The notes below the pieces were generated by a model. That model was not told the origin of the DNA. It ran no database searches and saw only the letters and a program-made list of their open reading frames with translations. Of a stretch of 64,000 bases of DNA, positions 1,825 through 29,228 are shown piece after piece (position 1 is the first letter of the stretch; each line of letters begins with the position of its first letter). This DNA comes from Longimicrobiales bacterium (GTDB lineage Bacteria; Gemmatimonadota; Gemmatimonadetes; Longimicrobiales; Gaopeijiaceae). A program made the position numbers and the translations under genes. The DNA lies in NCBI GenBank assembly GCA_965202805.1, contig OZ241869.1:2176001-2240000 (forward strand). Direction: 5' to 3'.

Positions 1825-4266
1825 ATGAAGATCCTCAACCCTGGCGCTGTACTGGTCGGTGGCCTCCTTCTGACGGGAGCCGGAATCGGCACGAGTTCCG
1901 GCCCCACGGCACCCACCGGGGAAGCGGTTCCACTGCCGGACGCTGTGCACGCTTCCTCCGTACCCACGGAGGAACTGACCACCGTCGTGCGCACGTACTG
2001 CCAGGTTTGCCACAACGACGCGCTGCTGACCGGCAACGTCTCGTTTGCCGAATTCACCGTCGAGGGCGCTTCCGACAACGCCCAACTCGCGGAACGCATG
2101 ATCCGCAAGCTGCGGGCAGGCATGATGCCGCCTCCGGGCATGCCGAGGCCGGAACCCGAGGTCCTGCTTTCACTTGTCGAGACGCTGGAAGAGAACGTCG
2201 ATGAGGCATACCGGCGGCATCCCAATCCCGGTGTCCGGACCTTCCAGAGGCTGAACCGGGCCGAGTATTCGGCGGCCATCCGCGAACTGCTCGGCATCGA
2301 GGTCGACGCGGGCGTGTGGCTTCCGCTGGACCAGATGAGCGAGAACTTCGACAACATCGCCGACGTCCAGGCGCTCACCCCGACCCATCTCGACGCCTAC
2401 CTGAACGCCGCGAGCGAAGTGAGTCGCCTGGCGGTCGGAAGCCCGAACGTCGATCCCACCGACGCCACCTACAACACCTCCCCGTACGGCTCCCAGCACG
2501 CCTGGGAGTACGTCGAGGGCGCGCCCTACGGCACCCGCGGCGGGATCGTGGTGACCCACGACTTCCCGGCGGACGGCGAGTACATCCTCACCCCGGTGGT
2601 CGAGGGCGGACGCAGCGCCCGCTACGAGGACGTGGACATTTCCATCGACGGCGAGCCCATCGCCCTGCTGGCGGCCGGTCCCTTCCCGCGCGGAGGCGCC
2701 GACTTCCGCGGCGGTTCGCCCATCAAGACCAACCCGACCTTCATCCGCGCCGGACAGCGCACGGTGTCGGCCGCGTTCGTGCGGCGAATCGACGGGCCCT
2801 ACGACGACCTCATCAAGCCGCCGGAGTGGTCCCTGGCGGGCGGAGCCGGCGGGAGCCCGGGACAGACCACCCTGCCGCACCTGAAGAGCCTCATCATCAG
2901 CGGCCCGTACAACGTCACCAGCGTTTCCGAGACGGAGGCGCGCCGGCGCATCTTCACCTGCCGGCCCACCACCCCCGAGGGAGAGCGGCCCTGCGCCGAG
3001 CAGATCCTCGACCAGATCGGAAGCGCCGCCTACAGGCGTCCGCTGGACGAGCGCGACATGGCCGGGCTGATGGCGTTCTACGACGATGGCGCCGGTGACT
3101 CGGGCTTCGAGACGGGGGTGCGTCGGGCGCTCCAGGCCATCCTCGCGAGCCCCCACTTCATCTTCCGCATCGAGAGGCAGCCGGAAGACATCAAGGCGGG
3201 CGAGCGCTACGAAATCAGCGACCTGGCGCTGGCGACCCGCATGGCCGCGTTCCTCTGGGGCACCCAGCCCGACGCCGAGCTGATCGACCTCGCCGAGCGC
3301 GGAAGGCTCCAGAACGACAGGGAACTGGAGAGACAGACCCGGCGGATGCTGGCCGATCCCAAGGCCGAGGCGCTCGGACCGCGCTTTGCGGCCCAGTGGT
3401 TCCGGCTGCAGGACCTCGACAAGGTGCACCCGGACTCCTACTGGTTCCCGAACTACAGCCAGCAGCTGGCCGACGCCATGCGCACCGAGACGGAGATGTT
3501 CTTCAACAGCCTCGTGCGCGACGACCGCAGCGTTCTGGACCTCTATACCGCCGATTACACCTACGTGAACGAACGGCTGGCCAGGCACTACGGCATTCCG
3601 GGCGTGCTGGGCGACGAGTTCCGACGTGTGGAGTACCCCGACAGCCGTCGCGGCGGCGTCATGGGACAGGGATCCATCCTGGTCCTCACCTCGATGGGCA
3701 CGCGTACCTCTCCGGTACTGCGCGGCAAGTGGGTGATGGAGGTGCTGCTGGGCACGCCTCCGCCACCGCCTCCGCCCGATGTCCCGGCGCTCGAGGAGAC
3801 CGAGGGTGCCACGGACGGACGCTTCCTGACCACGCGGGAGCGCATGGAGATCCACCGGGCCAACCCCACCTGCCACGCCTGCCATCAGTTCATGGACCCG
3901 ATCGGGCTCGCGCTCGACAACTTCGACGTGACCGGAAAGTGGCGCATCCGTGAGAACAACATGGCGCTCGACACCCGCGGCAACCTTTACGACGGCACGC
4001 CGTTGACGGCGCCCGAAGACCTCAGGGACGCGCTCATGCAGCGGCCCATCCCGCTGGTGCGGACATTCACCACCAACCTTCTGGCGTATGCCCTCGGTCG
4101 GCGCGTAGAATACCACGATCAACCCACTGTGCGGATGATCGCGCGGGAGGGTGAAGAGGATGACTACCGCATTTCGTCCTTCATCATCAACGTGGTCAAG
4201 AGCGACCCGTTCCGGATGAGGATGGCGGACGTGGTGGCCGAAGAAGAGATGGAGACCGAACGATAA
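1825..4266 (+). CDS. DUF1592/1588/1587/1595/1585 (PSD/PSCyt-type) di-haem c protein, copy 1
   Basis: Signal peptide, CQVCH, RAGMMPP, RLNRAEY, RTSPVLRGKWV, poly-Pro, CHACHQFMDPIG, YALGR. Confidence 0.9.
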   Translation: MKILNPGAVLVGGLLLTGAGIGTSSGPTAPTGEAVPLPDAVHASSVPTEELTTVVRTYCQVCHNDALLTGNVSFAEFTVEGASDNAQLAERMIRKLRAGMMPPPGMPRPEPEVLLSLVETLEENVDEAYRRHPNPGVRTFQRLNRAEYSAAIRELLGIEVDAGVWLPLDQMSENFDNIADVQALTPTHLDAYLNAASEVSRLAVGSPNVDPTDATYNTSPYGSQHAWEYVEGAPYGTRGGIVVTHDFPADGEYILTPVVEGGRSARYEDVDISIDGEPIALLAAGPFPRGGADFRGGSPIKTNPTFIRAGQRTVSAAFVRRIDGPYDDLIKPPEWSLAGGAGGSPGQTTLPHLKSLIISGPYNVTSVSETEARRRIFTCRPTTPEGERPCAEQILDQIGSAAYRRPLDERDMAGLMAFYDDGAGDSGFETGVRRALQAILASPHFIFRIERQPEDIKAGERYEISDLALATRMAAFLWGTQPDAELIDLAERGRLQNDRELERQTRRMLADPKAEALGPRFAAQWFRLQDLDKVHPDSYWFPNYSQQLADAMRTETEMFFNSLVRDDRSVLDLYTADYTYVNERLARHYGIPGVLGDEFRRVEYPDSRRGGVMGQGSILVLTSMGTRTSPVLRGKWVMEVLLGTPPPPPPPDVPALEETEGATDGRFLTTRERMEIHRANPTCHACHQFMDPIGLALDNFDVTGKWRIRENNMALDTRGNLYDGTPLTAPEDLRDALMQRPIPLVRTFTTNLLAYALGRRVEYHDQPTVRMIAREGEEDDYRISSFIINVVKSDPFRMRMADVVAEEEMETER

Positions 4267-4335
4267 CAGGCGCTTTCCCCTGGGTCAGCGCATGATGGAA
4301 ACCGGGTTGTAACTCCCTGCTTCAGGAGATCTGAA

Positions 4336-5766
4336 ATGCAATTCATCACCGGCAAGCACATCGCCCGTCGCACCTTCCTGCGGGGGATGGGCGCAACAGT
4401 AGCGCTTCCACTGCTCGATTCGATGCTGCCCGCGGCGAGTCCGTGGGCGAGCCGGAAGCTCGCGGAAGGGAAGACGCGTCTTCTCGCGATCGAGGTCGTG
4501 CATGGCGCTGCCGGAAGCGTCGACTGGGGCGCGAAGCAGTTCCTGTGGGCTCCCGAGAAGATCGGACGCGACTTCGAGTTCGTGGCCCAGAGCGCGCTTA
4601 CGCCGCTCGAGGACTGGCGGAAGTACCTCACGATCGTGAGCAACACCGACGTTCGCATGGCGGAGGCCTTTACCGGGCCCGAGATCGGCGGTGACCACTT
4701 CCGCTCCAGCGCCACCTTCCTCACCCAGCAGCACCCGAAGCAGACCCAGAGTTCCGATCTCTACGTCGGCACCTCGCTCGACCAGATGTTCGCGGGCCGC
4801 TTCGGGCAGGACACTCCGCTGCCGTCCATGCAGCTGTGCATCGAGGATCTCGATCAGGCCGGCGGGTGCACGTACAACTACTCGTGCGCCTACACCGACT
4901 CGATCAGCTGGGCCGCGCCCAACGAGCCGCTGCCGATGATCCGCGATCCGCGCACCGCCTTCGACCTGCTCTTCGGTGCCGGCGGCACCCCGGAAGAGCG
5001 CCAGGCGCGCCGGCGTGAGAACGCGAGCATCCTCGACTGGATCGTGGGTGAGGTGGCTCACCTGAGGCGCGAGCTGGGCGCCACCGACCGCCGCCGCATG
5101 GACCAGTACCTGGACAACGTGCGCGAGATCGAGCGCCGCATTCAGATGGTCGAGGCGCAGAACTCGAGCGGCGAGCAGCGCGAGCTGCCCGAGGCGCCTG
5201 CGGGCGTGCCGGATTCCTTCACCGAGCACATGCAGATGATGTTCGACCTGCAGGTGCTGGCGCTGCAGTCCGACATGACACGCGTCTTCTCCTTCAAGAC
5301 CGGGCGCGACGCGTCGAACCGGATCTATCCGGAGAGCGGCACCGACAAGCCGTTCCACCCGACTTCGCACCACGGCAACAACGAGGAGACCATCCTCGAC
5401 TTCAACACCATCAACAAGTTCTACGTGGGCCTGCTGCCGTACCTGCTCGAGAAGCTGCACAACAGCCAGGACGGCGAATCGAGCCTGCTCGACCAGACCA
5501 TGATCATCTACGGGTCGCCCATGGGAGACCCGAACATCCACAACCACCGCCGGTGCCCGCTGTTGCTGCTGGGTGGCGCCAATGGCCAGCTCGCAGGCGA
5601 CATGCACCTGAAGGCGCCGGACGGTACCCCGATGGCCAACGTCTTCCTGAACGTGATGCACAAGCTCGGTTTCGACGGCATGTCCAGCTTCGGCGACAGC
5701 ACGGGCGAGTTCAACGTGCCGAGTTCGGTGTTGACCGCGGTCGAAGAGGCAAGTCAGTCACGCTAA
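4336..5766 (+). CDS. DUF1552 (HXXSHH) family Tat-exported protein, copy 1
   Basis: RRTFLRG twin-arginine motif, LPLLDSM, HPTSHH; AGGAG SD. Confidence 0.9.
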   Translation: MQFITGKHIARRTFLRGMGATVALPLLDSMLPAASPWASRKLAEGKTRLLAIEVVHGAAGSVDWGAKQFLWAPEKIGRDFEFVAQSALTPLEDWRKYLTIVSNTDVRMAEAFTGPEIGGDHFRSSATFLTQQHPKQTQSSDLYVGTSLDQMFAGRFGQDTPLPSMQLCIEDLDQAGGCTYNYSCAYTDSISWAAPNEPLPMIRDPRTAFDLLFGAGGTPEERQARRRENASILDWIVGEVAHLRRELGATDRRRMDQYLDNVREIERRIQMVEAQNSSGEQRELPEAPAGVPDSFTEHMQMMFDLQVLALQSDMTRVFSFKTGRDASNRIYPESGTDKPFHPTSHHGNNEETILDFNTINKFYVGLLPYLLEKLHNSQDGESSLLDQTMIIYGSPMGDPNIHNHRRCPLLLLGGANGQLAGDMHLKAPDGTPMANVFLNVMHKLGFDGMSSFGDSTGEFNVPSSVLTAVEEASQSR

Positions 5767-7725: not shown

Positions 7726-8277
7726 CTAGCCTCCCCCGCCCCTCATGGTCGTAACTTCGATCAGCCCGTTAGGGAAGCCCGTTCCCCAGCGCATGGTGGC
7801 GTCGGCGGCGCTGTGGAAGCGAACCGACTGGACCTGGTCGGGGCGCAGGGAGTCCAGGATCCCCCAGTCCTGCGGAGCTCCGCCATCCACGACGACGGGC
7901 ACCCGCCGGTCACCCCCGAACTCGATGCTGGGCGCGCCGCGCACGTTCATCCAGCGGGGCCGCAACTGACGGATGGCGTCGGCGAGCATCATGGTGGAGT
8001 AGTTTGCGAACTCCTCGGCCACGATCACGCTCGGGTCGCGCCGGACGTTGCGGTCGCACAAGTGGTCGAGTTCCTCCGCCGACAGCACGCCGGCCTCCTC
8101 CGCGCCCGGTGCGTCGGCCGCCGGGCCGCCTTCCGCGCACACCTGGGCCAACTGATCGCCGGTGAGGGTTGCCCGCAGCTCCCGCACGGCGGGAGTGTCG
8201 CCCGGGCTGCTGACACACGCTGAAGCGAGGAGGATGAGGGGGAGCCCCGCTACGGGTTTCGGGGAGGTGAGTCGCAT
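7726..8277 (-). CDS. Small lipoprotein with TonB-receptor plug-like C-terminal domain
   Basis: GGAGG SD, lipobox LASAC, VVVDG...LDSLRPDQVQSVRF...ATMRWG...GLIEVTT. Confidence 0.65.
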   Translation of the reverse strand: MRLTSPKPVAGLPLILLASACVSSPGDTPAVRELRATLTGDQLAQVCAEGGPAADAPGAEEAGVLSAEELDHLCDRNVRRDPSVIVAEEFANYSTMMLADAIRQLRPRWMNVRGAPSIEFGGDRRVPVVVDGGAPQDWGILDSLRPDQVQSVRFHSAADATMRWGTGFPNGLIEVTTMRGGGG

Positions 8278-8447
8278 GGTCCTGCCTCCATCAAGGGTTC
8301 GGGTACACGGGTCCATCATCCGCGAGATGCGCTGGGGAGACCAAGCCCCGTGGCCGCCAGGGCGGGCGTGCCGGTCTCCCGTACTACTGTTGCGTCGCGG
8401 TCAGAGGTCCGCGCGCACCCGACCCTCGAGCCGACGGCCAGAGGCCG

Positions 8448-8918
8448 CTACCCCGTGGCGCGCGCTCTGAATGGCCGATGGCATCCGCCGCAGGTACGCC
8501 CGAAGCCCCTGGCTGCTTCCCCCACGGCCGCCACGTCGCCCCCCCGGGCCGCTTCAGCCAGCGCGTCGGCAGCGCTCTGGAAAGCCGAGAGAGCCTCTCC
8601 GAAGCCGGTGGCGTCCTCCCAGATGTCGGGAAGCGCGCGTGAGCCGTCGCCATGGGATCCCTCGGGGAAGATGTCGGAGGCCATCACCGACAACTGCTGC
8701 AGCGAGAGCGCGTGCCCGAGCACATGGCCCTCGTGGGGCACGTCCTCGTTCAGGATGGCGGTGAGAGCGCCCCGGTGCGCGTTGAGGCTGTTCATGATGG
8801 TCTGGCGGTACTCCATGACCGGGGTTGGGTCCTGGGCAGCCGCTTCGGCGGGGGCGAGTCCGGCGATGATGCAAGCGGCGAGAGCGGTGCGGGTTACGAC
8901 TGCGTACGAGCGGGCCAC
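8448..8918 (-). CDS. Cytochrome c' (class II cytochrome c)
   Basis: GGAGGA SD with GTG start, signal peptide, YRQTIM, FPEGS, SRALPDIWED, C-terminal TCGGCHRPFR. Confidence 0.9.
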   Translation of the reverse strand: MARSYAVVTRTALAACIIAGLAPAEAAAQDPTPVMEYRQTIMNSLNAHRGALTAILNEDVPHEGHVLGHALSLQQLSVMASDIFPEGSHGDGSRALPDIWEDATGFGEALSAFQSAADALAEAARGGDVAAVGEAARGFGRTCGGCHRPFRARATG

Positions 8919-9199
8919 GGCGTTTCCTCCTCCCCGAAGAATGAGACCCGGAGGCACCCGTGAAGCGACCATCCGGGCGGGTTCGAGCGCGTTGTCACGA
9001 AACCCTAGATAGATCGCCGGGGGGCGTCGGCGCAAGGGAGGATGGCGCGCCGACCCGGGCACAGAAGCGTACGTCGCCGCAGCGAAGCGGATGCTCGCAG
9101 GATGGGTGGTAGGCGACCAAGGGCAAACCGGTCAGCCGGCGACGTCGCCGGCGCTGCTCCAACGGTCCTGTGGTGCTGGTCGGGTTCGGGCCGCCCGAA

Positions 9200-17545: not shown

Positions 17546-19972
17546 ATGAATGTACTCTATGGCGCCACGGCCGCCCTGGGCGTCGCCCTGCTGGTCGGAG
17601 CGAGCGGAAACGGCTTCTTGACGGACGCGCCGCCCGCTCCGGCACCTCCCGCGGCCCACACGGCCGCCGCCGCCGACCTCCCCGCCGCCACGCTCACCGA
17701 GGTGGTGGCCCGGTACTGCCAGGTCTGCCACAACGACGCCCTCCTGACCGGCAACATGACCCTGTCGGGCTTCCAGGTGGAGGCGGCCGCCCAGAACGCC
17801 GAAACCGCAGAGCGCATGATCCGCAAGCTGCGTGCCGGCATGATGCCCCCGCCCGGCATGCCCCGCCCCGCCGGCGACACCCTGCTGGCCCTGGTCGAGA
17901 CGCTCGAGAACACCATCGACGACGCCGCGCGCCGCAACCCCAACCCCGGAGGGCGCACCTTCCAGCGGCTCAACCGGGCGGAATACGCGCAGTCGGTAAA
18001 GGACCTGCTCGGCCTCGAGATCGACGCCGGCGAATACCTCCCCCTGGACACCAAGAGCGCCAACTTCGACAACATCGCCGACGTGCAGATGCTCTCGCCG
18101 ACGCTGCTCGAGGCGTACCTCAACGCGGCCAGCGAGATCAGCCGGCTGGCGATCGGAGACCGCGAAGCATCGCCGCGGGAGGTGGCCTACAAGGTCGAGA
18201 AGCGCGCTTCACAGCTCGTCCATGTGGAGGGCACCCCCTACGGCTCGCGTGGCGGCATCGCCATCAACCACACCTTCCCGGCGGACGGGGAGTACGTGTT
18301 CTGGATGCAGTTCCACGGCGTGGGCGGAAGGGCAGCCGGCGAGAAGATCGAGATCTCCTTCGACGGCGAGCGGGTCGCCCTTCTGGACGTGAACCTGCGC
18401 GGCGGGACGGAGAACGAGCAGCAGGGCCGGGAGATGGTCACCGACCCCATCTTCGTGCGCGCCGGTCCGCGCAGCGTGTCCGCGGCGTTCGTCAGGACCT
18501 TCGAGGGACCGGTAGAGGAAGTGCGCGCGCCGCTCGGCCGCGCCGTCAACAGCGGCTGGCCCGACCTGGCGCTCACCACCGTGCCGCACCTGCGCGAGTT
18601 CGCGGTGCGCGGACCCTTCAGCGTCACCGGCGTATCGGAGACGCCGAGCCGGCAGAAGATCTTCAGTTGCCGCCCGACCGCTCCGGACGAAGCGCCCACA
18701 TGCGCGCGCAGCATCTTCTCGCGTCTGGCCACGGAAGCCTACAGGCGTCCCGCCAGCGGGAGCGACGTCGCCGACCTGATGGCCTTCTACGAGATCGGCG
18801 CCGACGAGGGCGGCTTCGAGCGCGGCGTCCGCTTCGCGCTGCAGGCCTTGCTGGCGAGCCCGCATTTCGTCTTCCGCTTCGAGGAACCGCCCTCGGGCAC
18901 GCGGGCCGGCGAGGAATACGAACTCGACGGCGCCGCCGTCGCCTCGCGGCTGTCCTTCTTCCTCTGGGGCTCTCCCCCGGATGAAGAGCTCATGGAGGCT
19001 GCCCGCCGCGGGAGGCTGGACGACGACGACGTACTCGAACGGCAGGTGCGCCGAATGCTGGCGGATCCGCGCGCCGAAGCCCTTTCGACCCGCTTCGCGT
19101 CGCAGTGGCTGCGTCTGCAGGATCTGGAGAAGGTGTCGCCCGACATCTACACCTTCCCGTACTTCGACATGACGCTGTCGGACGCGATGCGGCGGGAGAC
19201 CGAGCTCTTCTTCCAGCATCTCGTGCAGGAGGACCGCAGCCTGCTGGACATTCTCACGGCGGACTACACCTTCGTGAACGAGCGGCTGGCCGCGCACTAC
19301 GGGATGCCCGGCGTGGCCGGCAATGACTTCCGGCGCGTCGCCTATCCGGACGGCAGCCGCAGCGGGCTCCTCGGACAGGGCAGCATCCTCATGCTCACCT
19401 CGATGGCCAACCGCACCTCGCCCGTGCTGCGGGGCAAGTGGGTCATGGAAGTGCTTCTGGACGCTCCGCCTCCGCCTCCGCCGCCCGATGTTCCCGCCCT
19501 GGAGGCCATCGAAGGAACCGAGGAAGGCAAGGTCCTGACCACGCGCGAGCGCATGGAGAAGCACCGGGCCAGCCCGGTCTGCCAGGCCTGCCACCAGTTC
19601 ATGGACCCCATCGGTCTGGCGCTCGACAACTTCGACGTCACCGGGGAGTGGCGCGTGCGCGAGTACGGGATGCCGCTCGACACCCGGGGAACCTTCTACG
19701 ACGGAACCACCGTGGCGAGCCCGGGCGATCTGCGCGACGTGCTTCTCAAGCGCCCCATCCCCATCGTGCGCGCCTTTGCCAAGAACCTGATGGCGTACGC
19801 GCTCGGGCGCCGCGTGATGCACTACGACCAGCCTGCGATCCGCGAAATCACGCGCGAGGCGGAGGCCAATGACTACCGGATGTCGTCGTTCATACTGGGC
19901 GTGGTCCAGAGCGACGCGTTCTCCATGAAGCGTACGGATGCGCTCCTGACGGAGGAGACGTCATCCAACTGA
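17546..19972 (+). CDS. DUF1592-type di-haem c protein, copy 2
   Basis: GGAGG SD, MNVLYGAT signal peptide, CQVCH, CQACH, same motifs as copy 1. Confidence 0.9.
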   Translation: MNVLYGATAALGVALLVGASGNGFLTDAPPAPAPPAAHTAAAADLPAATLTEVVARYCQVCHNDALLTGNMTLSGFQVEAAAQNAETAERMIRKLRAGMMPPPGMPRPAGDTLLALVETLENTIDDAARRNPNPGGRTFQRLNRAEYAQSVKDLLGLEIDAGEYLPLDTKSANFDNIADVQMLSPTLLEAYLNAASEISRLAIGDREASPREVAYKVEKRASQLVHVEGTPYGSRGGIAINHTFPADGEYVFWMQFHGVGGRAAGEKIEISFDGERVALLDVNLRGGTENEQQGREMVTDPIFVRAGPRSVSAAFVRTFEGPVEEVRAPLGRAVNSGWPDLALTTVPHLREFAVRGPFSVTGVSETPSRQKIFSCRPTAPDEAPTCARSIFSRLATEAYRRPASGSDVADLMAFYEIGADEGGFERGVRFALQALLASPHFVFRFEEPPSGTRAGEEYELDGAAVASRLSFFLWGSPPDEELMEAARRGRLDDDDVLERQVRRMLADPRAEALSTRFASQWLRLQDLEKVSPDIYTFPYFDMTLSDAMRRETELFFQHLVQEDRSLLDILTADYTFVNERLAAHYGMPGVAGNDFRRVAYPDGSRSGLLGQGSILMLTSMANRTSPVLRGKWVMEVLLDAPPPPPPPDVPALEAIEGTEEGKVLTTRERMEKHRASPVCQACHQFMDPIGLALDNFDVTGEWRVREYGMPLDTRGTFYDGTTVASPGDLRDVLLKRPIPIVRAFAKNLMAYALGRRVMHYDQPAIREITREAEANDYRMSSFILGVVQSDAFSMKRTDALLTEETSSN

Positions 19973-20002
19973 AGCGGGGCTAACGTCCCGGGAGGCAAAT
20001 CG

Positions 20003-21430
20003 ATGAACTTCCTCACCGGCAAACATATCCACCGGCGCACCTTCCTGCGCGGGATGGGCGGATCCCTGGCGCTTCCGCTTCTGGACGCAATGGTGCCCGC
20101 GGGCGCGGGATGGGCCCGGGCTTCGGCCAATCTGGAGAAGACCCGCTTCATCGCCGTCGAGATCGTGCACGGCGCCTCCGGATGCACGGAATGGGGCGCG
20201 ACCCAGAACCTGTGGTCGCCGGCGAAGACCGGGCGCGACTTCGATCTGAGCCCAACGGCCATGAAGTCGCTCGCGCCGTTCCAGGACTACCTCACCATCG
20301 TCAGCAACACGGACGTGCGCATGGCGGACGCCTACACGTCGCCCGAGATCGGTGGTGACCACTTCCGTTCGAGCGCGACGTTCCTGACGCAGGCGCACGC
20401 GAAGCAGACCGAGGGTTCGGACGTCTTCGTGGGAACCTCGATGGATCAGCTGTACGCGCATCGCTTCGGCCAGGAGACGCCGATTCCGTCGATGCAGCTG
20501 TGCATCGAGAACGTGGACCAGGCGGGCGGATGCGCCTACGGCTACGCCTGCGTGTACACCGACACCCTGAGCTGGGCCTCCCCCACCGAGCCGCTGCCGA
20601 TGATCCGCGATCCGCGGGTCGCCTTCGACATGCTCTTCGGAGCGGGCGGAACCCCCGAGGCGCGCGCCGAGCGCCGGCGGGCCAACCGCAGCATCCTGGA
20701 CTGGATCGCGGGCGAGGTGGCCGAGTTGAAGATGGTGCTGGGCGGCGAGGACCAGGTCCGGCTGGAGCAGTACCTGGAGAACGTGCGTGAGCTGGAGCGC
20801 CGGATTCAGATGATCGAGGAGCAGAACGCGAGCGGCGAGGAGCGGGCCCTTCCGGAAGCCCCGGCGGGCGTTCCCGACTCCTTCACCGAGCACCTGCAGC
20901 TCATGTTCGACCTCCAGGTGCTGGCCTTCCAGACCGACATGACGCGGGTCTTCACGCTCAAGCTGTCGCGCGACGCCACCAACCGGGTCTACCCGGAGAG
21001 CGGCCTCGACCTGCCCTTCCATCCCACGTCGCACCACGGCAACAACCATGAGGAAATCCTCAAATTCCAGCAGTTCAACGAGTTCTTCACGGGACAGATG
21101 CTTTACCTGCTGGAGAAGCTGAACGGGTCGATGGACGGGGACGCGAGCCTGCTCGACCGCAGCATGGTGCTGTACGGATCGCCCATGGGCGACCCCAACG
21201 TCCACAACCACCGGCGGGTGCCCATGTTCCTCGCCGGCAAGGCCAACGGCCAACTCGAGGGCAACGTGCACCTGCACGCTCCCGACGGCACGCCCATGGC
21301 CAACGTGATGCTCACCATGTTGCACAAGCTGGGTCTGGACGACCTGGAGGACTTCGGCGACAGCACCGGCGAATTCGGGCTGTCGCTGCCCGTGATGGCG
21401 GCCGAAGACGCCAGCAGCTCGAGCAGATAG
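20003..21430 (+). CDS. DUF1552 (HXXSHH) Tat protein, copy 2
   Basis: RRTFLRG, HPTSHH; GGAGG SD. Confidence 0.9.
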   Translation: MNFLTGKHIHRRTFLRGMGGSLALPLLDAMVPAGAGWARASANLEKTRFIAVEIVHGASGCTEWGATQNLWSPAKTGRDFDLSPTAMKSLAPFQDYLTIVSNTDVRMADAYTSPEIGGDHFRSSATFLTQAHAKQTEGSDVFVGTSMDQLYAHRFGQETPIPSMQLCIENVDQAGGCAYGYACVYTDTLSWASPTEPLPMIRDPRVAFDMLFGAGGTPEARAERRRANRSILDWIAGEVAELKMVLGGEDQVRLEQYLENVRELERRIQMIEEQNASGEERALPEAPAGVPDSFTEHLQLMFDLQVLAFQTDMTRVFTLKLSRDATNRVYPESGLDLPFHPTSHHGNNHEEILKFQQFNEFFTGQMLYLLEKLNGSMDGDASLLDRSMVLYGSPMGDPNVHNHRRVPMFLAGKANGQLEGNVHLHAPDGTPMANVMLTMLHKLGLDDLEDFGDSTGEFGLSLPVMAAEDASSSSR

Positions 21431-21497
21431 GGCGGGCCCGCGGGACGATCGCCGGAGGTCACGCATTCAAGGACATCACGCGCACACCGGAGAGCCG

Positions 21498-23255
21498 ATG
21501 AGAGAGATGATGCGCGAGAAGCGAAGGAAGACGGGAGCCGGGAGAAGGGAGAGGCCGGGCGCGCTGGTGGCCGCCCTGATCCTGACCCTCCTGGTCTCGG
21601 CTGCGACGCCGCCGGACTCGCCGGTGGCGGACGCCGCCATGCGCGGCGACCACGGGTCGGTGCGCGGGCTGCTTCAACAGGGGGCCGACGTAAACGCCGC
21701 CCAGGGCGACGGCATGACCGCGCTCCACTGGGCGGCCGACCGCGGTGACCTGGGGATGGCCCGGATGCTCGTCTACGCGGGGGCCGGCCTGGACGCGGTC
21801 ACGCGGATGGCGGAGTACACGCCCCTGCACCTGGCCAGCCGGGCGGGCCACGGGGCGGTGGTGCGCGCGCTGCTCGAGGCGGGCAGCGACCCGGCGGCGC
21901 TCACCGCCAGCGGCGGCGCCACCCCGCTGCACCTGGCGGCCGCGGCGGGTGATCCGGAATCGGTCGCCGCGCTCATCGAGTACGGCGCCGAGGCGGACGC
22001 CCGCGAGGAGAGGGCCGGGCAGACCCCGCTGATCTTCGCCGCGGCACAGAACCGGGTGGAGGCGATCCAGGCGCTGCTCGCGGGCGGGGCCGACCCGTCG
22101 CTTACCACTGCCGTGGTGGACATGGTCGAGCTGGAGGAGTCCCTCCGCGGTGGCGAGCAGGACCGGGTGCGCCAGCAGATCGCCGCCCAACTCGCCGCCA
22201 GGGCCACGCAGGAACAGAAGGAAGAGGGCGAAGAGGAAGAGAAGCCGGCCGAGGCCCCCAAGCCCCTCTCCATGGGGCAGCAGGTGGGGCACATGGGTGG
22301 CATGACCGCGCTGCTGCACGCGGCGCGCCAGGGTCACGCCGGAGCCGTAGAGGCGCTCCTCGACGCCGGCGCCGGGATCGATCAGGTCAGCGCGGACGGG
22401 ACCACGCCGATCTTCATCGCCGCGCTTAACGGCCATTTCGACCTGGTCCTGGCGCTGCTGGAACGCGGCGCCGATCCGAACCTCGCCAACCACGCGAACG
22501 GCACGCCTCTCTTCGCCACCATCAACCAGCAGTGGATCCCCAAGACCGGGTACGCCCAGCCCAACGTCCATCTCCAGCAGAACGCCACCCACCTGGAGGT
22601 CATGGAGGCACTCCTGCGGGCGGGGGCCGACCCGAACGCGCGACTGTCCAAGCGGCTCTGGTTCACCCAGTACGGCGGCAGCATCCTGAGCGTCAACATG
22701 ATCGGCGCGACGCCCTTCTGGCGCGCCTCCTACGCGGCCGACGTCGTCGCGATGAGGCTGCTGGTCGCGTACGGCGCCGACCACCGCGTCCCGACGCAGC
22801 GGCCGCCTCCGCGCCGCCGCATCGCCTGGGACGAGGATCCGGGCGCGGACAAGTCGGGGATTCCCGCAGTGCCGGTCGGTGGCCCGGGCATCTACCCGAT
22901 TCACGCGGCATCCGGTGTGGGATACGGGCAGGGCTTCGCGGCCAACGCCCATCGGCACGCGCCCGACGGCTGGATGCCGGCCATGCGCTACCTGGTGGAC
23001 GAACTGGGCGTGGACGTCAACGTGCGCGACCACGACGCGTACAACGCGCTGCATCACGCCGCCTCCCGCGGGGACACGGAGATGATCCGGTTCCTGGTGG
23101 AGCGCGGCGCGGACGTAATGGCGATCAGCCGCATCGGCCAGACGACCGCCGACATGGCCAACGGGCCCTATCAGCGCACCACGCCCTACCCGGATGCGAT
23201 CGCGCTGCTGGAGTCGCTCGGTTCCCTGAACAACAACAACTGCCAGTCCTGCTGA
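21498..23255 (+). CDS. Secreted ankyrin-repeat protein, copy 2
   Basis: ANK repeats, PIHAASGVGYG, ends NNNNCQSC. Confidence 0.9.
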   Translation: MREMMREKRRKTGAGRRERPGALVAALILTLLVSAATPPDSPVADAAMRGDHGSVRGLLQQGADVNAAQGDGMTALHWAADRGDLGMARMLVYAGAGLDAVTRMAEYTPLHLASRAGHGAVVRALLEAGSDPAALTASGGATPLHLAAAAGDPESVAALIEYGAEADAREERAGQTPLIFAAAQNRVEAIQALLAGGADPSLTTAVVDMVELEESLRGGEQDRVRQQIAAQLAARATQEQKEEGEEEEKPAEAPKPLSMGQQVGHMGGMTALLHAARQGHAGAVEALLDAGAGIDQVSADGTTPIFIAALNGHFDLVLALLERGADPNLANHANGTPLFATINQQWIPKTGYAQPNVHLQQNATHLEVMEALLRAGADPNARLSKRLWFTQYGGSILSVNMIGATPFWRASYAADVVAMRLLVAYGADHRVPTQRPPPRRRIAWDEDPGADKSGIPAVPVGGPGIYPIHAASGVGYGQGFAANAHRHAPDGWMPAMRYLVDELGVDVNVRDHDAYNALHHAASRGDTEMIRFLVERGADVMAISRIGQTTADMANGPYQRTTPYPDAIALLESLGSLNNNNCQSC

Positions 23256-23286
23256 AGACGCGGCGGCATCCAACGGGCGGAGCACG

Positions 23287-25842
23287 GTGAAGAACGTCAC
23301 GACTGTCGGACTGCTGGGCCTTCTCTGGGTCAACCTGGGCGTCCTTGCGAGCCCCGAACCCTCCGTGGACAGGAGAGGTGGCGCACCTCCCGGTATGGTT
23401 TCCCATACCGCCGATATGGATACCCATACCAACGGGTGGTCCGGACGCTTCTCGACCTCGGGCGCCGCCGTGGCCGGGAGGGCGGTCGGACCGGGTTCCG
23501 CCCGCGTTCGGGTAGCGCCTTCCACGCTCACCGATGTGGTGCAGCGCTACTGCCAGGTGTGCCACAACGACGCGCTTCTGACCGGCAACCTCTCGCTCGC
23601 CGGGTTCGACGTGGAGCAGGCGCCGTCGCGGCCCGAGACCGCGGAGAAGATGATCCTCAAGCTGCGTGCCGGGATGATGCCGCCCCCTGGGATGCCCCGG
23701 CCCGCCGGCGACACCCTGGTCGCGCTGGTGGAGGAACTGGAGGGCAGGATGGACGCGGCCGCGCGCGCGGCCCCCAACCCCGGCGGGCGCACCTTCCAGC
23801 GGCTCAACCAGGCCGAGTACGCGAGGTCGATCGAGGACCTCCTGAACCTGCGCATCGACGCCGGCGACTACCTGCCGCCCGACACCAAGAGCGCGAACTT
23901 CGACAACATCTCCGAGGCGCAGCTGCTCTCGCCCACGCTCCTCGACGCATACATGAACGCGGCCAACCAGATCAGCCGCCTGGCCATCGGCAACCCAGGC
24001 GCCCAGCCCGCCGAGCGGACCTACACGGTGTCCGGCTATGTCTCCCAGAGGGAGCGGGTCGAGGGGGCGCCCTACGGCACCCGCGGCGGCGTGAGCGTGG
24101 TGCACCACTTCCCCGCGGACGGCACCTACCAGTTCCGCATCGTCTTCGAGCACACCACCACGGGCGAGGGCTTCTTCGGCCAGATCGCGCGCTTCGAGCA
24201 GCTCGAAGTCTCGATCAACGGCGAGCGGGTGGCGCTGCTGGACGTGGACCAGTGGATGCACATTTCCGATCCGGAAGGCATCTCCATGCGCACGGATCCG
24301 GTCTTCGTGCGCGCGGGGCCGCAACGGGTGACCGCGGCCTTCGTCAAGCGCACCGAGGGGCCGGTGGAAGACCTCATGTCGCCCCACGAATGGTCGCTGG
24401 CGGACCGGCACACCGGCATCAGCGGCTACGGTCTGACCCTGCTTCCGCACCTTCGGGACCTGGTGATCGGCGGGCCGTACGAAGCGGCCGGAATCTCGGA
24501 GACGCCCAGCCGGCAGCGCATCTTCAGCTGTCGTCCCGAGTCGGCCGGGGAAGGCGAGAGCTGCGCCCGCGACATCCTCACCCGGCTGGCGGGCAAGGCG
24601 TACCGCAGGCCGCTGCTCGAGCGCGACATGGCCCCGCTCATGGCCTTCTACCGCACCGGCGAGGATGAGGGCGGCTTCGAGGCGGGCATCGCCACCGCCC
24701 TGACGGCCATCCTGGCGAGCCCGCACTTCGTGTTCCGCATGGAGGAGGCGCCGGCCGGCATCCAGCCGGGCGAGACGTTCCGGATCGACGATATCGACCT
24801 GGCCTCGCGGCTGTCCTTCTTCCTCTGGGGGACGCCGCCGGACGACGAGCTCATGGCGCTGGCGGGAGAAGGTGCGCTGAGCCGCGACGAAGCCCTGGAA
24901 GCGCAGGTGCGGCGCATGCTGGCCGATCCGCGCGCGGCCTCCCTGGGACCCCGGTTCGCGGCCCAGTGGCTGCGCCTGCAGGATCTGGAACTGGTTCATC
25001 CGGACCAGTTCTGGTTCCCCGACTACGACCAGCAGCTCGCCGACGCCATGCTGCGCGAGACCGAGCTGTTCTTCAACCACCTGGTCGAGGAGGATCGAAA
25101 CGTCCTCGATCTGTACGACGCCGACTACACCTTCGTGAACGAACGCCTTGCGCGTCACTACGGCATTCCCGGGGTGCTGGGCACCCAGTTCCGGCGGGTG
25201 AACTACCCGGGTCCCGAGCGGCGCGGCGTGCTGGGTCACGGCAGCATCCTCACCCTGACCTCGGTGGCGAACCGGACATCGCCGGTGCTGCGCGGCAAGT
25301 GGGTGATGGAGGTGCTGTTGGGGACGCCCCCTCCCCCTCCCCCTCCGGGGATTCCGGACCTGGAGGAGACCGAGGACTCGGAGGGCGGACGCATGCTCAC
25401 CACCCGTGAGCGCATGGAGAAGCATCGCGCCAACCCGGTGTGCAACGCCTGTCACCAGTTCATGGATCCCATCGGGCTGGCGCTGGACAACTTCGACGTC
25501 ACCGGGAAGTGGCGCATCCGCGAGCACGGCATGCCGCTCGACACGAGAGGCACCTTCTACGACGGCAGCACGGTCGCGAGCCCGGACGACTTGCGCGAGG
25601 CGCTCCTTCGGCGGCCGGAGCCGCTCATCCGGACGTTTACCGCGAACCTGATGACGTACGCGCTGGGGCGCAGGACCGAGTACTACGATCAGCCGGCCAT
25701 CCGCGCCATCGTGGCGGAGGCGGCCGAGGAAGACTACAGGATGTCGTCCTTCATCACCGGCGTGGTGAAGAGCGACGCCTTCAGAGCCAAGAGGGTACCC
25801 GAGGCGCTGGCGGAGAGCGCCCCGCAGCCGCCGGACCGGTAG
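23287..25842 (+). CDS. DUF1592-type di-haem c protein, copy 3
   Basis: GGAG SD with GTG start, signal peptide, CQVCH, CNACH. Confidence 0.9.
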   Translation: MKNVTTVGLLGLLWVNLGVLASPEPSVDRRGGAPPGMVSHTADMDTHTNGWSGRFSTSGAAVAGRAVGPGSARVRVAPSTLTDVVQRYCQVCHNDALLTGNLSLAGFDVEQAPSRPETAEKMILKLRAGMMPPPGMPRPAGDTLVALVEELEGRMDAAARAAPNPGGRTFQRLNQAEYARSIEDLLNLRIDAGDYLPPDTKSANFDNISEAQLLSPTLLDAYMNAANQISRLAIGNPGAQPAERTYTVSGYVSQRERVEGAPYGTRGGVSVVHHFPADGTYQFRIVFEHTTTGEGFFGQIARFEQLEVSINGERVALLDVDQWMHISDPEGISMRTDPVFVRAGPQRVTAAFVKRTEGPVEDLMSPHEWSLADRHTGISGYGLTLLPHLRDLVIGGPYEAAGISETPSRQRIFSCRPESAGEGESCARDILTRLAGKAYRRPLLERDMAPLMAFYRTGEDEGGFEAGIATALTAILASPHFVFRMEEAPAGIQPGETFRIDDIDLASRLSFFLWGTPPDDELMALAGEGALSRDEALEAQVRRMLADPRAASLGPRFAAQWLRLQDLELVHPDQFWFPDYDQQLADAMLRETELFFNHLVEEDRNVLDLYDADYTFVNERLARHYGIPGVLGTQFRRVNYPGPERRGVLGHGSILTLTSVANRTSPVLRGKWVMEVLLGTPPPPPPPGIPDLEETEDSEGGRMLTTRERMEKHRANPVCNACHQFMDPIGLALDNFDVTGKWRIREHGMPLDTRGTFYDGSTVASPDDLREALLRRPEPLIRTFTANLMTYALGRRTEYYDQPAIRAIVAEAAEEDYRMSSFITGVVKSDAFRAKRVPEALAESAPQPPDR
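23390..23431. repeat. 21-bp tandem duplication whose units are palindromic (TATGG-N4-CCATA)
   Basis: GGTATGGTTTCCCATACC at 23392-23409 and GATATGGATACCCATACC at 23413-23430. Confidence 0.75.
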
Positions 25843-25926
25843 GCGCGCCGGCAGCCGGAGACGAAGAAACGCGTCCGGCCGCCCCGCCCATCGCCAGCGG
25901 CGACGAACCATCCGAGGAGAGTGGAG

Positions 25927-27360
25927 ATGCACTTCATCACCGGGACACACATCCCCCGCCGTACCTTCCTGCGCGGCGCCGGCGCGACCGTCGCCCTGCC
26001 CTTCCTGGATGCCATGATCCCCGCGGGCGGCGTCTGGTCACGCAGGGCGGCCGCCGATCCCGCCACCCGGCTGGTGGCCATCGAGATGGTGCACGGGGCC
26101 GCGGGGTGCAACGAATGGGGCGCCACCCAGTACCTGTGGTCCCCCGAGGCAACCGGGCGCAACTTCGACCTCTCCCCGAGCTCGCTGCTTCCGCTCGAAC
26201 CCTACCGCGACCGCCTCACCATCATCAGCAACACCGACGTGCGGATGGCCGAGGCCAGAATGCCCCACGAGATCGGCGGCGACCACTTCCGTTCGAGTGC
26301 CGTCTTCCTCACCCAGGCCCATCCCAGGCAGACCCGGGGTTCGGACGTGTTCGCCGGCACCTCCATGGATCAGGTGCACGCGCAGCGCTTCGGGCAGGAC
26401 ACGCCGATCCCTTCGATGCAGCTCTGCATTGAGAACGTGGACCAGTCGGGGGGCTGCGCCTACGGCTACTCGTGCGTCTATACCGACACCATCAGCTGGG
26501 CTTCGTCCACCGAGCCGCTGCCCATGATCCGCGACCCGCGGGTGGCCTTCGAGATGCTCTTCGGGGCCGGAGGCACGCCCGAGGAACGAGCCGCGCGCAG
26601 GCGCACCGACGGGAGCATTCTGGACTGGATCGCCGGCGAAGTCGCGTATCTCAGGCGCGCGCTTGCGCAGGACGACCAGCAGCGCCTCGACCGCTACCTG
26701 GAGAACGTCCGCGAGCTGGAGCGGCGGATCGAGGGCATCGAGACCCGCAACACCAGCGGGGAGCCGCGCGAGCTGCCCGAAGCACCGGCCGGGGTCCCGG
26801 ACTCCTTCACCGAGCACATGCAGCTCATGTTCGACATCCAGGTGCTCGCCTTCGCCTCCGACGTCACGCGCGTGTTCTCCTTCAAGACGGGGCGGGACGC
26901 GTCGTCGCGGGTCTATACCGAGAGCGGCATCGACAAGGCCTTCCACCCGGCGTCGCATCACGGAGGCAACGAGGAGGCCATTCTGGACTTCGCCCGCATC
27001 AACACCTTCCAGGCGGGGCAGCTCCCGTATCTCCTGCAGAAGCTGGAGGAGACGACGGAGGGCGACGGCACCCTGCTCGACAAGACGATGATCGTCTACG
27101 GCTCGCCGATGGCCGACGGCAACCTGCACAACCACCGCCGCTGCCCGCTCATCGTGCTGGGCGGCGCGAACGGGCGCCACGAAGGCGGGCTGCACCTGAA
27201 GGCTCCCGACGGCACCCCCATGGCCAACGTGATGTTGAGCATGCTGCACGCCCTGGGGCACGACGACAGGGACAGCTTCGGCGACAGCACGGGCGAGTTC
27301 CGGTTGAGCCCGCCGGCGGTGGTCGTCGAGGCTTCCAACCGGTCCGACCAGAGCGGCTGA
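25927..27360 (+). CDS. DUF1552 (HXXSHH) Tat protein, copy 3
   Basis: MHFITG..RRTFLRG, HPASHH; GAGGAG SD (GTG at 25921 is an alternative start). Confidence 0.9.
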   Translation: MHFITGTHIPRRTFLRGAGATVALPFLDAMIPAGGVWSRRAAADPATRLVAIEMVHGAAGCNEWGATQYLWSPEATGRNFDLSPSSLLPLEPYRDRLTIISNTDVRMAEARMPHEIGGDHFRSSAVFLTQAHPRQTRGSDVFAGTSMDQVHAQRFGQDTPIPSMQLCIENVDQSGGCAYGYSCVYTDTISWASSTEPLPMIRDPRVAFEMLFGAGGTPEERAARRRTDGSILDWIAGEVAYLRRALAQDDQQRLDRYLENVRELERRIEGIETRNTSGEPRELPEAPAGVPDSFTEHMQLMFDIQVLAFASDVTRVFSFKTGRDASSRVYTESGIDKAFHPASHHGGNEEAILDFARINTFQAGQLPYLLQKLEETTEGDGTLLDKTMIVYGSPMADGNLHNHRRCPLIVLGGANGRHEGGLHLKAPDGTPMANVMLSMLHALGHDDRDSFGDSTGEFRLSPPAVVVEASNRSDQSG

Positions 27361-29228
27361 TGCGGTCGGGACGGAGGGTGTCCCGGCGGCGACGCGGGTT
27401 CCGGCTGGGTGCCGGGTCTGCCAGGAACGCGCTCCGGGCCATCGTGCCAGGGGAGTCCTCGCGGAGAGGCGGGTTCCGGCTGGGCGCGGGGGTTGTCGCG
27501 CTCCTGCTGTGGGCCGCCGCCCCCGCCGACTCGCCGGTGGCGGACGCGGCGATGCGGGGCGACGCGGAGGCCGTGGAGGCCCTGATCGCCCGGGGCGCGG
27601 ACGTGAACGTCGCCCAGGGCGATGGCATGACGGCGCTGCATTGGGCCGCGGAGCGGGCGGAAGCCGCGCTGGTCCGCATCCTGCTCGACGCCGGGGCGGA
27701 CGTCACCCCGGTCACGCGCATCGGCGACTACACTCCCCTGCACCTGGCCGCCAGGTCCGGAAGCGCGCCCGCGGTCGAGGCGCTGCTGGAGGCGGGCGGC
27801 AACCCTCGGGCGGTGACCGCCACCGGAGCCGTCACTCCCATGCACTTCGCGGCCGGCGCCGGGAACCCGGACGCGGTCGTCGCGCTTGCCCGCCACGGTG
27901 CCGACGTCGACGCCCGCGAGGCGGACCGGGGACAGACGCCGCTCATGTTCGCCGCGGCCAACGACCGGGTGGAGGCCGTGCGGGCTCTCCTGGAGCTGGG
28001 TGCCGACCTGACGCTCCGCACCCGGGTCGTGGACATCGTGGATCTCGCCGCCGTCGACCGCGAGGCGGGAGAGGCGCGGGACGCCGTACTGGAGGAGTTC
28101 CGGGCACAGGCGGCGGATCCGCGCACCTGGCGGCCGACCCCCGAACAGGTAAGGGTTGCGGTGCGCGCCGGGCACGAAGTGCAGCGTTCCCGCATGCAGG
28201 CCGCATCCGACCAGGAAGAGCCGGAAGCGGCCCCGGACGCCTTCCCCGGATACACCGGCCTGGTCGGCGCCCAGGGCGGGATGACGGCGCTCCTGCACGC
28301 GGTGCGCGAGGGGCACACCGAGACGGTCCTGGCCCTGCTCGACGCCGGCGCGGACATCAACGGCGTGAGCGGCGGCGACCACACCGGCCCGCTGCTGATG
28401 GCGACCATCAACGGCCACTTCGACCTGGCCATGACCCTGCTCGGCCGCGGGGCCGACCCGCGCATCGCCAGCGACGCGGGCGCCACCCCGCTGTACGGCG
28501 CGATCAACGCCTACTGGGTCCCGAAGTCCCGCTATCCGCAGCAGCAGGCGTACCAGCAGCAGCAGACGACATACCTGGAGCTGATGGAGGCACTGCTGGA
28601 AGCGGGCGCCGATCCCAACGCGCGCCTGACCCGGCACCTCTGGTACATGTCCTACACCTTCGACCTGCTGCGGGTGGACACCCAGGGAGCCACGCCCTTC
28701 TGGCGAGCCGCCTACGGGACCGACGTGGAGGCGATGAAGCTGCTGGTGGCGTACGGCGCCGATCCGTCGATTCCGACCATGAAGCCGCCCGCGCGGCGAA
28801 GGGGCGACGCGGACGCGGAGGATCCGTCAGGGCTGCCGCCCGTTCCGGTAGGTGGGCCCGGAGTATACCCGATTCACGCCGCTTCGGGCGTGGGGTACGG
28901 AGAGGGCTTCGCGGGGAACTCGCACCGGCATGCGCCCGACGGCTGGCTGCCGTCCGTGCGCTACCTGGTGGAGGAACTGGGGGTCGACGTCAACGCCCGC
29001 GATCACAACGGATACAACGCCGTTCATCATGCCGCCTCACGCGGCGATGTCGAGCTCATCCACTACCTGACCGGGCACGGCGCGGACGTCATGGCGGTCA
29101 GCCGGAGGGGACAGACGACGGCCGACATGGCGAACGGCCCGTATCAGCGGACCCAGCCCTTCCCGGAGGCGCTGTCGCTGCTGGAGAGCCTCGGGGCGCA
29201 CAACAACGACAACTGCGTGTCCTGCTGA
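27360..29228 (+). CDS. Secreted ankyrin-repeat protein, copy 3
   Basis: TGATG coupling with the DUF1552 gene, ANK repeats, ends NNDNCVSC. Confidence 0.88.
   Translation: MRSGRRVSRRRRGFRLGAGSARNALRAIVPGESSRRGGFRLGAGVVALLLWAAAPADSPVADAAMRGDAEAVEALIARGADVNVAQGDGMTALHWAAERAEAALVRILLDAGADVTPVTRIGDYTPLHLAARSGSAPAVEALLEAGGNPRAVTATGAVTPMHFAAGAGNPDAVVALARHGADVDAREADRGQTPLMFAAANDRVEAVRALLELGADLTLRTRVVDIVDLAAVDREAGEARDAVLEEFRAQAADPRTWRPTPEQVRVAVRAGHEVQRSRMQAASDQEEPEAAPDAFPGYTGLVGAQGGMTALLHAVREGHTETVLALLDAGADINGVSGGDHTGPLLMATINGHFDLAMTLLGRGADPRIASDAGATPLYGAINAYWVPKSRYPQQQAYQQQQTTYLELMEALLEAGADPNARLTRHLWYMSYTFDLLRVDTQGATPFWRAAYGTDVEAMKLLVAYGADPSIPTMKPPARRRGDADAEDPSGLPPVPVGGPGVYPIHAASGVGYGEGFAGNSHRHAPDGWLPSVRYLVEELGVDVNARDHNGYNAVHHAASRGDVELIHYLTGHGADVMAVSRRGQTTADMANGPYQRTQPFPEALSLLESLGAHNNDNCVSC

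Follow-up and report, generated by a model that had tools for sequence, protein, structure and literature searches.

What do three exported proteins accomplish that one bacterium encodes side by side, again and again? The question is raised by a 64,000-nucleotide stretch of DNA (the window) from a marine Longimicrobiales bacterium of the phylum Gemmatimonadota (assembly GCA_965202805.1, contig OZ241869.1, positions 2,176,001 to 2,240,000), in which genes for a predicted two-haem protein (A), a DUF1552 protein with a twin-arginine motif (B) and an ankyrin-repeat protein (C) follow one another at three places. We favour, tentatively and with somewhat less than even confidence, the reading that each A-B-C set is an isoform of a periplasmic haem-coupled oxidoreductase, in which B would oxidise an imported substrate and A and C would tune specificity.

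The initial annotation of the window had described the same gene order at three places, with nine intact genes. Both observations held: all open reading frames (ORFs) are intact and run A-B-C on the + strand. The 31 nt between C2 and A3 and the 11.7 kb spanned by copies 2 and 3 together were likewise confirmed. The gaps measure 30-84 nt between A and B and -1 to 67 nt between B and C. Pfam models recovered the expected domains in all nine proteins, namely PSD3, PSD5, PSD4, PSCyt3 and PSD2 in A1, A2 and A3 (all five above cut-off in each), HXXSHH, that is DUF1552 (PF07586, E about 1e-84), in B1-B3, and ankyrin repeats in C1-C3. Each copy retains two CxxCH motifs in A, RRTFLRG and HP[TA]SHH in B, and a CxxC directly before the stop codon of C (3/3 copies in the window); export signals were judged by eye. 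The copies are 58-64% (A), 67-68% (B) and 49-58% (C) identical. Fourfold-degenerate sites, already noted as diverged, are 43-52% identical, with 41% expected at saturation, and second codon positions are 70-84% identical. The copies are therefore old duplicates under selection.

The count of three copies had to be revised, since the whole genome (4.02 Mb, one contig) holds 12 A, 12 B and 12 C genes, and the 12 A-B-C sets take up about 70 kb of the 4.0 Mb. The nearest named relatives of B (96-98% identical) are metagenome-assembled genomes of Longimicrobiales and Gemmatimonadetes. B was found in 18/18 other genomes of the genus searched, with 9-13 matches in the 17 genomes at least 87% complete and 3 matches in one at 67% completeness. 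Across Gemmatimonadota, 48/201 genomes had B matches, with 1-6 copies outside the genus in that draw; the genus and phylum tallies each include one unpublished genome without a match. From three complete congeners we fetched 36 sets, of which 33 were complete and 3 were dropped for split or cut genes. In 33/33 congeneric sets, A, B and C share one best-match paralogue of our genome (82-98% identity), and distances in the paralogue trees of the 12 sets are correlated (A-B 0.68, B-C 0.79, A-C 0.50; permutation p ≤0.004). That is, the sets are inherited as units, as a comparison of gene trees envisaged in the initial annotation also indicates. Shared history is no proof of subunit contact, and inter-protein covariation on paired alignments gave no signal at this depth (top z 8.3 for A-B with 82 rows and 7.4 for B-C with 67 rows, versus 8.0-9.5 in shuffled controls).

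We then surveyed how the three genes are arranged in relatives. Among close relatives (79 GTDB loci with 90 B genes, from the best 80 of 599 matches, all Gemmatimonadota and Acidobacteriota), the gene before B is A in 85 cases, and the gene after B is C in 83, A in 3 and another B in 1, with the contig ending in 3. The linkage spans records of both phyla, including the named isolate Roseisolibacter and a groundwater bin. For a second clade, about 42% identical to B1, we sampled 80 Joint Genome Institute (JGI) metagenome loci: in 59 of them B is followed by an ankyrin gene, in 10 the contig stops there, and 11 show something else. The suggestion that the ankyrin gene belongs with the pair is thus borne out in close and more distant cases alike. 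Far more distant matches came from 17 records, of which five plasmid loci were opened (Novosphingobium, Planctomyces, Chondrinema, Sphingobium, Pseudoalteromonas). A precedes B in all five; a plain ankyrin follows B in Novosphingobium, and no ankyrin follows it in the other four. We therefore regard A-B as the old core, joined by C in a large branch.

The CxxC tail of C had been proposed as a likely metal ligand, a reading that the wider comparison does not support. It is found in 0/44 complete ankyrins of the second clade, and 2 of the genome's 12 C paralogues carry C-x11-C in its place, which excludes a universal metal ligand and makes a disulfide the better fit; judged from these alignments, the tail is clade-specific. 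Curated NCBIfam effector models scored far below cut-off on C, with the repeats as the only match. In arrays of the form A-B-A-B-C and A-B-B-C (L020, L021, L029, L034), a single C may be shared by two B genes, as would be expected of an assembly factor more readily than of a stoichiometric subunit. Sixteen long proteins resembling A-B or B-C fusions were discarded as frameshift or read-through artefacts, because the 6 that were inspected are out of frame, or carry an internal leader, where the two parts meet; they provide no Rosetta-stone evidence.

By its motifs, A is a c-type cytochrome with two predicted haems. Both CxxCH motifs are invariant in 80/80 aligned A sequences, and the histidine six residues before the second is present in these 80/80 and in 56/56 further ones; the genome encodes two cytochrome c assembly genes (PF01578). 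In the structural model (predicted local distance difference test (pLDDT) score 88, built from 80 sequences), an N-terminal cytochrome with CxxCH and an invariant Met is followed by a beta-sandwich and a helical core bearing the second haem motif. The sandwich, which is internal and without Pfam match, resembles carbohydrate-binding modules (CBMs) of families CBM36, CBM35 and CBM6 (Z 9-10.3, root-mean-square deviation (rmsd) 2.6-3.1, 107-109 residues aligned), with jelly rolls other than CBMs reaching up to 9.5. It is 47% identical among the 12 paralogues versus 60-75% for the other domains. A sequence search of solved structures with A gave nothing significant, and solved X183 structures were not retrieved by its cytochrome. 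Foldseek with the whole model found no match at E 0.001. In the structure comparison that gave the Z scores above, the jelly roll took up the list and the helical core was barely probed, so we do not propose a new fold for it. An atlas search with the core returned no usable match.

The core of B is predicted to adopt the alpha/beta fold of the alkaline phosphatase superfamily. Its model (pLDDT 89, from 146 sequences) matched ENPP7 with Z 16.5 (rmsd 3.5, 248 aligned), sulfatases being tied. In total, 69 chains matched at Z ≥8, and the 50 listed all belong to this superfamily; for NPP/ENPP enzymes, sulfatases and phosphoethanolamine transferases the shared core extends over 240-285 residues at Z 14-16.5. 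B is 6-14% identical to these enzymes and, unlike them, has a constant cytochrome partner. A sequence search of solved structures with B yielded nothing significant.

Within this fold, H121, H341 and H345 are present in 132/132 and H402 in 129/132 full-length B sequences (77 of the 132 less than 55% identical; 14 partial rows were left out), and the four histidines are recognisable even in the very distant Pseudoalteromonas B. NPPs from related genomes (15 loci) carry the motifs SFDG, T-x8-TG, D-x3-H, SDHG and a late His, which supply the two Zn sites and the nucleophile. B presents its elements in the same order, with a strand 1 without Asp, H121-x8-T130, H341-x3-H345, GSPM for SDHG, and H402. 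NPPs, alkaline phosphatases and sulfatases use a Ser, Thr or Cys (formylglycine) nucleophile and Asp-containing metal ligands. By motif register, the histidines of B would occupy the nucleophile and Zn1 positions, His standing in for the Ser/Thr/Cys nucleophile and for the Zn1 Asp, and the Zn2 ligands would be lost. Read in this register, B has lost the acidic ligands of the hydrolase site, among them the strand-1 Asp and the Asp-His pair, and may hold one metal by histidines alone. C178, C184 and Y186 are kept in most members but not in the most distant ones. R11-R12 is invariant in 68/68 sequences, the hydrophobic stretch holds a conserved Pro and Asp, and the genome encodes TatC. One B paralogue (L084:8361-9740) has Ala for the last His of HxxSHH and keeps the four core histidines.

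A link to a studied system came through the literature on cellulose-degrading bacteria. A proteomics table labels a Cellvibrio CBM2 protein 'DUF1592 domain-containing' (PMC6004670), Cbp2D is annotated CBM2-X158-FN3-X183-DUF1587-X132, and a supplementary sheet lists a CBM26-X183-X132 protein of Pseudoalteromonas sp. Bsw20308 (PMC8981238). The core of A aligns to a starch-binding protein of that strain with 30% identity at E 6e-32, and also at E 4.5e-58. This protein comprises CBM26, a glucose/sorbosone dehydrogenase domain, cytochrome c and PSD3/5/4/PSCyt3/PSD2, and was matched to the supplement by organism and architecture, not by accession. Because the CBM26-X183-X132 protein matches the core of A, X132, for which there is no public profile, very probably equals the PSD5-PSD4-PSCyt3-PSD2 core, a likeness to Cbp2D reached through the Pseudoalteromonas protein and not by direct alignment. 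A DUF1552 gene with the four histidines begins 16 nt after the gene for this protein. With 2157 aa, four CxxCH motifs and the PSD core, the protein itself (L243:3775-11599), from a strain in culture, may be a redox enzyme linked to starch.

Cbp2D and the Teredinibacter proteins TERTU_2913 and TERTU_3803 share with A the order cytochrome c, DUF1587 and C-terminal CxxCH domain (PMC8981238, PMC12542752, PMC10916295). A differs from Cbp2D in lacking FN3 as well as CBM2 and X158 (YceI), for the last two of which there is neither a Pfam match nor room in 808-851 aa, and from its Pseudoalteromonas relative in lacking the dehydrogenase domain; it is probably periplasmic rather than secreted onto polysaccharide. 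The statement that the genes have 'no assigned function' cannot stand for the family of A, for which a knock-out and cytochrome work on Cbp2D are in print. Loss of cbp2D slows growth on cellulose, and the authors of that study suggest a new mechanism by which Cbp2D/E would cleave cellulose (PMC12542752). Two genes for hypothetical proteins, CJA_2614 and CJA_2617, are induced along with cbp2D (log2 2.5 and 2.2, versus 2.3 for cbp2D; Table S2 of PMC12542752). In Cbp2D, the cytochrome serves as electron-transfer haem, with a potential of +193 mV, and in isolation it reduces copper lytic polysaccharide monooxygenases (LPMOs) in vitro, and X158 binds ubiquinone (PMC8981238); the Teredinibacter cytochromes failed to drive LPMOs (PMC10916295). 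In the passages of these three papers that we covered, X132 is without a characterised homologue and neither DUF1552 nor ankyrin is mentioned (PMC8981238, PMC12542752, PMC10916295).

How might the three proteins work together? B would be exported folded by twin-arginine translocation (Tat), carrying one transition metal in a remodelled site of alkaline-phosphatase type, bound by His121, His341, His345 and His402. It would oxidise a small organic substrate delivered by TonB-dependent (SusC/SusD-like) importers. A would dock on B through its PSD5-PSD4-PSCyt3-PSD2 (X132) core, with electrons passing from B to the C-terminal haem of A, on to the N-terminal His/Met cytochrome and then to periplasmic carriers. 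The CBM-like domain of A and the variable loops of C may help to set substrate choice, and C may be a dedicated accessory that acts as a clamp or helps assembly, with a structural disulfide between its terminal cysteines. The initial annotation had already proposed a periplasmic redox complex in isoforms with different substrates. From that proposal, a haem electron-transfer subunit and a metal-bearing catalytic subunit fit the models and motifs, and A varies most in a domain of binding type, which is what isoforms would lead one to expect; assembly into a complex and the substrates themselves stay conjectural. Redox ties also appear in relatives, as cytochrome c and b genes after B in Sphingobium and as the dehydrogenase domain and CBM26 fused to A in Pseudoalteromonas. 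With respect to import, SusC-like genes lie within 5 kb of 7/11 clusters versus 1.0 expected (p 0.0002; 20 SusC-like genes in the genome, iterated search), and SusD-like genes within 5 kb of 5/11.

Several observations weigh against the oxidoreductase proposal. The characterised fold matches of B are all hydrolases or transferases, and its histidine register relies on motif spacing and secondary-structure order; a profile-profile alignment of B with the NPPs from the 15 loci was not significant (probability 0.4%). Among the 12 B proteins, the surroundings of the four histidines are less varied than might be required for distinct substrates. In Pseudoalteromonas, where A carries a fused dehydrogenase domain, the oxidising role need not fall to B. 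The SusC link is weak at 1 kb (3/11, p 0.02) and the SusD link not significant at 1-3 kb (SusD-like genes within 1 kb of 2/11 clusters), and the association may reflect shared uptake islands. Most neighbours of the sets are peptidases, amidohydrolases and amidases, also transporters, and not sugar enzymes, and the class of substrate can therefore not be read from the CBM-like fold. Finally, the deeper branching of the A, B and C paralogue trees agrees only in part (distance correlations 0.50-0.79), and there may therefore have been early shuffling between sets.

The main rival reverses the electron flow. A would collect electrons, either at an input module or from the quinone pool, and pass them through its C-terminal haem to the metal of B, which would activate O2 or reduce a substrate, as an oxygenase or terminal reductase or, at the extreme, in a haem-metal binuclear centre. 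Sites for Cu or Fe(II) typically consist of three to four histidines, which counts towards this idea. Distant members with input domains fused to A also speak for it, the domains being the glucose/sorbosone dehydrogenase domain and the ubiquinone-binding X158 of Cbp2D, as well as by LPMO reduction in vitro (PMC8981238) and the mechanism proposed for Cbp2D/E (PMC12542752). The A proteins studied here, however, have no input domain, no conserved donor gene stands next to the 12 sets, and the Teredinibacter cytochromes did not drive LPMOs (PMC10916295). On balance we think reversed flow unlikely.

A hydrolase or group transferase is a still less attractive solution, and we consider it quite unlikely. 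B would then use His121 as nucleophile, through a phospho- or sulfo-histidine, together with one Zn, and A would be a redox partner that activates it, regulates it or handles its product. All fold matches point this way, as does the apparent place of His121 at the nucleophile position with Zn1 ligands seemingly kept, and hydrolases are common among the neighbours. Why such an enzyme should require a di-haem partner is not apparent, yet A stands before B in 85/90 close cases and in the five distant loci; by motif register, the strand-1 Asp and the Asp-His pair are missing from B. It is also improbable, in our view, that the trio is non-catalytic, with B capping the C-terminal haem through a His ligand or binding metal in a relay, sensor or metal store. 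The tested parts of the family are electron-transfer cytochromes whose neighbouring domains showed no activity in the work covered (PMC8981238, PMC10916295), and a repertoire for binding or sensing could well run to the 46 copies found in one genome. On the other side, no regulator or membrane transducer is a constant neighbour of the 12 sets, and four invariant histidines at the catalytic position of an enzyme fold fit catalysis better. That C is instead a host-modulating, eukaryote-like ankyrin protein of a sponge symbiont, merely sharing an operon with A and B, we hold to be very improbable: ankyrins are enriched in sponge Gemmatimonadota and Luteitaleia, and some ankyrins modulate phagocytosis (PMC8163846), and close relatives of the locus occur in sponge and coral RNA libraries, but the linkage is also found in the Roseisolibacter isolate, the groundwater bin and the second clade from JGI metagenomes, and in 33/33 congeneric sets C has kept the A and B that belong to it.

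This bears on how ankyrin genes are counted. Robbins et al. 2021 list Gemmatimonadota (0.25% of genes) and Luteitaleia (0.55%) among ankyrin-rich sponge lineages and discuss ankyrin proteins of sponge symbionts as host modulators (PMC8163846). C would count among these eukaryote-like proteins, but differs in being a gene of a fixed operon that also occurs outside sponge-linked records. In our genome, C genes make up 12 of 14 ankyrin ORFs by a custom profile and 12 of at least 15 ankyrin genes with Pfam. Two Vicinamibacterales genomes (G227 and G228, of loci L051 and L064) encode 46 and 44 DUF1552 genes, many of them clustered; near most of these genes there is an ankyrin gene, which is often encoded on the other strand. 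Of their separable ankyrin ORFs among the best 150 of 330 matches, 33/40 and 29/39 lie within 5.5 kb of a DUF1552 gene, where about 2.7 are expected at random. The module thus accounts for most ankyrin genes counted in our genome and for most of the best-scoring ones in the two Vicinamibacterales genomes. This calls into question their reading as host-mimicry proteins, and ankyrin counts from these sponge-associated lineages need re-reading where they are taken to indicate host interaction.

Some sets depart from the common layout. One set of this genome (L080:6263-16441) has about 4.5 kb between A and B, filled by a SusC/SusD-like pair; the gap is kept in three congeners (orthologues L133, L144, L155), and the set forms a clade with its sister set L083, which has a different C tail as well, in all three gene trees. 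In another (L088:6480-17125), SusC/SusD-like genes are followed by B-C, with A several kb downstream, an order kept in three congeners (L129, L136, L150). Single genes of a set are split in some assemblies (L002, L030, L032, L042, L066, L133, L155), by sequencing error or decay. The Sphingobium locus (L092:1256-10498) holds a TonB receptor, an AraC regulator, an A without N-terminal cytochrome and a DUF1552 gene, then the cytochrome c and cytochrome b/b6 genes, with flavin monooxygenase and Rieske genes nearby. As a whole, the B family comprises 13,374 matching clusters at 50% identity; its tree was a quick one with very long branches, and we drew no order of events from it.

Within the window, neither of the two clusters is among those near SusC-like genes, and a TonB-type gene lies 2.2 kb after copy 1. 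Genes around the sets are listed with them in Table 1. The longer ORFs at 16820-19972 and 26472-29228 are start-codon over-extensions, and a longer GTG start of B3 at 25921 was ruled out as too near the purine-rich site; with C3 starting at 27360, B3 and C3 overlap by one base. RNA-library contigs of relatives, mostly less than 95% identical, cover all six genes of copies 2 and 3 and bridge A2-B2, B2-C2, A3-B3 and, narrowly, C2-A3; flanks are covered too, and such contigs cannot show transcripts. A promoter and terminator scan of 16800-30000 gave chance level only.

Table 1. The nine genes of the three A-B-C sets and further genes of the window.
Feature	Coordinates	Strand	Description
A1	1825..4266	+	813 aa; N-terminal hydrophobic leader; class I-type cytochrome c (C59-x2-C62-H63 + M101); PSD3; CBM6/35/36-like jelly roll ~206-366 (predicted); PSD5-PSD4-PSCyt3-PSD2 core with H677-x5-C683-x2-C686-H687
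B1	4336..5766	+	476 aa; DUF1552; twin-arginine motif; alkaline-phosphatase-superfamily fold (predicted); H121/H341/H345/H402 site; loop C178-x5-C184-x-Y186
C1	5783..7573	+	596 aa; ankyrin-repeat protein; hydrophobic leader, conserved inserted loops, NNxNCxxC end
A2	17546..19972	+	808 aa; paralogue
B2	20003..21430	+	475 aa; paralogue
C2	21498..23255	+	585 aa; paralogue
A3	23287..25842	+	851 aa; paralogue; GTG start 31 nt past C2 stop
B3	25927..27360	+	477 aa; paralogue; ATG start
C3	27360..29228	+	622 aa from ATG overlapping B3 stop; alternative GTG 27444 gives 594 aa
Between copies 1 and 2	7726-17410		
Cytochrome c'	8448-9062	-	
Thioredoxin-like protein	9200-9901	-	
TonB-type receptor	9802-12705	+	
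MsrP	13730-14833	+	
Exported protein	14933-15925	-	no Pfam match; similar to the next
Exported protein	15939-16844	-	no Pfam match
After copy 3	29254-33053		
FmdB-type zinc ribbon protein			
Cytochrome c	30169-30591	+	mono-haem
Exported protein	30732-31529	-	His-rich
ORF	31563-33053	-	496 aa; one CxxCH; no Pfam match
Further along the window	34569-39020, 48565-57103		SusC/SusD pair, succinate dehydrogenase/fumarate reductase flavoprotein, fumarase C

Parts of this picture are already in print. The A-B pair corresponds to the 'Group III' PSCyt3/PSD (DUF1592, DUF1588, DUF1585, DUF1587, DUF1595) plus DUF1552 pair of He et al. 2017, with the same Pfam domains and adjacency and, as here, many copies per genome and function given as unknown (PMC5615132). 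Here a third, ankyrin gene is added (the word ankyrin is absent from the text and searchable supplements of that study), the hosts are Gemmatimonadota and Acidobacteriota, and the CBM-like domain is internal. A parallel design is seen in the DUF1501 plus PSCyt1/PSCyt2/PSD1 module of Planctomycetes-Verrucomicrobia-Chlamydiae (PVC) bacteria (Kamneva et al. 2012), where a cytochrome with binding domains accompanies a twin-arginine protein proposed as a cofactor enzyme, so that the redox-plus-Tat-enzyme idea has been published for that module; its Pfam families differ, and ankyrin is not mentioned in the parts covered (PMC3542564). By language-model features, no other family comes closer to B than the DUF1501 clusters (score 0.82), which we treat as no more than a lead. 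A DUF1552 gene also appears in a stress table (PMC2754498). In the literature covered, which leaves aside figure-only supplements and most subscription journals, we found no function for DUF1552 and no mention of an ankyrin partner. To this the locus contributes a stable repertoire of 12 members, a CBM-like domain hidden within A, a connection to Cbp2D that brings in a neighbouring DUF1552 gene, a CxxC tail limited by clade, and a tally of the ankyrin genes.

Taken jointly, and as something possible rather than probable, DUF1552 would be an alkaline-phosphatase scaffold turned redox metalloenzyme, with a four-histidine Cu/Fe site set against the X132/PSCyt3 haem; the DUF1552-X132/PSCyt3 pair would be the catalytic core of a very large, unrecognised family of oxidoreductases, periplasmic and extracellular, and the missing partner of Cbp2D; and most 'eukaryote-like' ankyrins of sponge-type Gemmatimonadota and Vicinamibacteria would be its third subunit and not host mimicry. 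The family is large, with as many as 12 copies in this genus and 44-46 in the two Vicinamibacterales genomes, and has no known reaction. The Cbp2D connection gives a culturable and genetically tractable test system, and the four-histidine reading names specific residues for mutation. We know of no redox enzyme on an alkaline-phosphatase scaffold; if the reading is true, this would be new chemistry for the superfamily.

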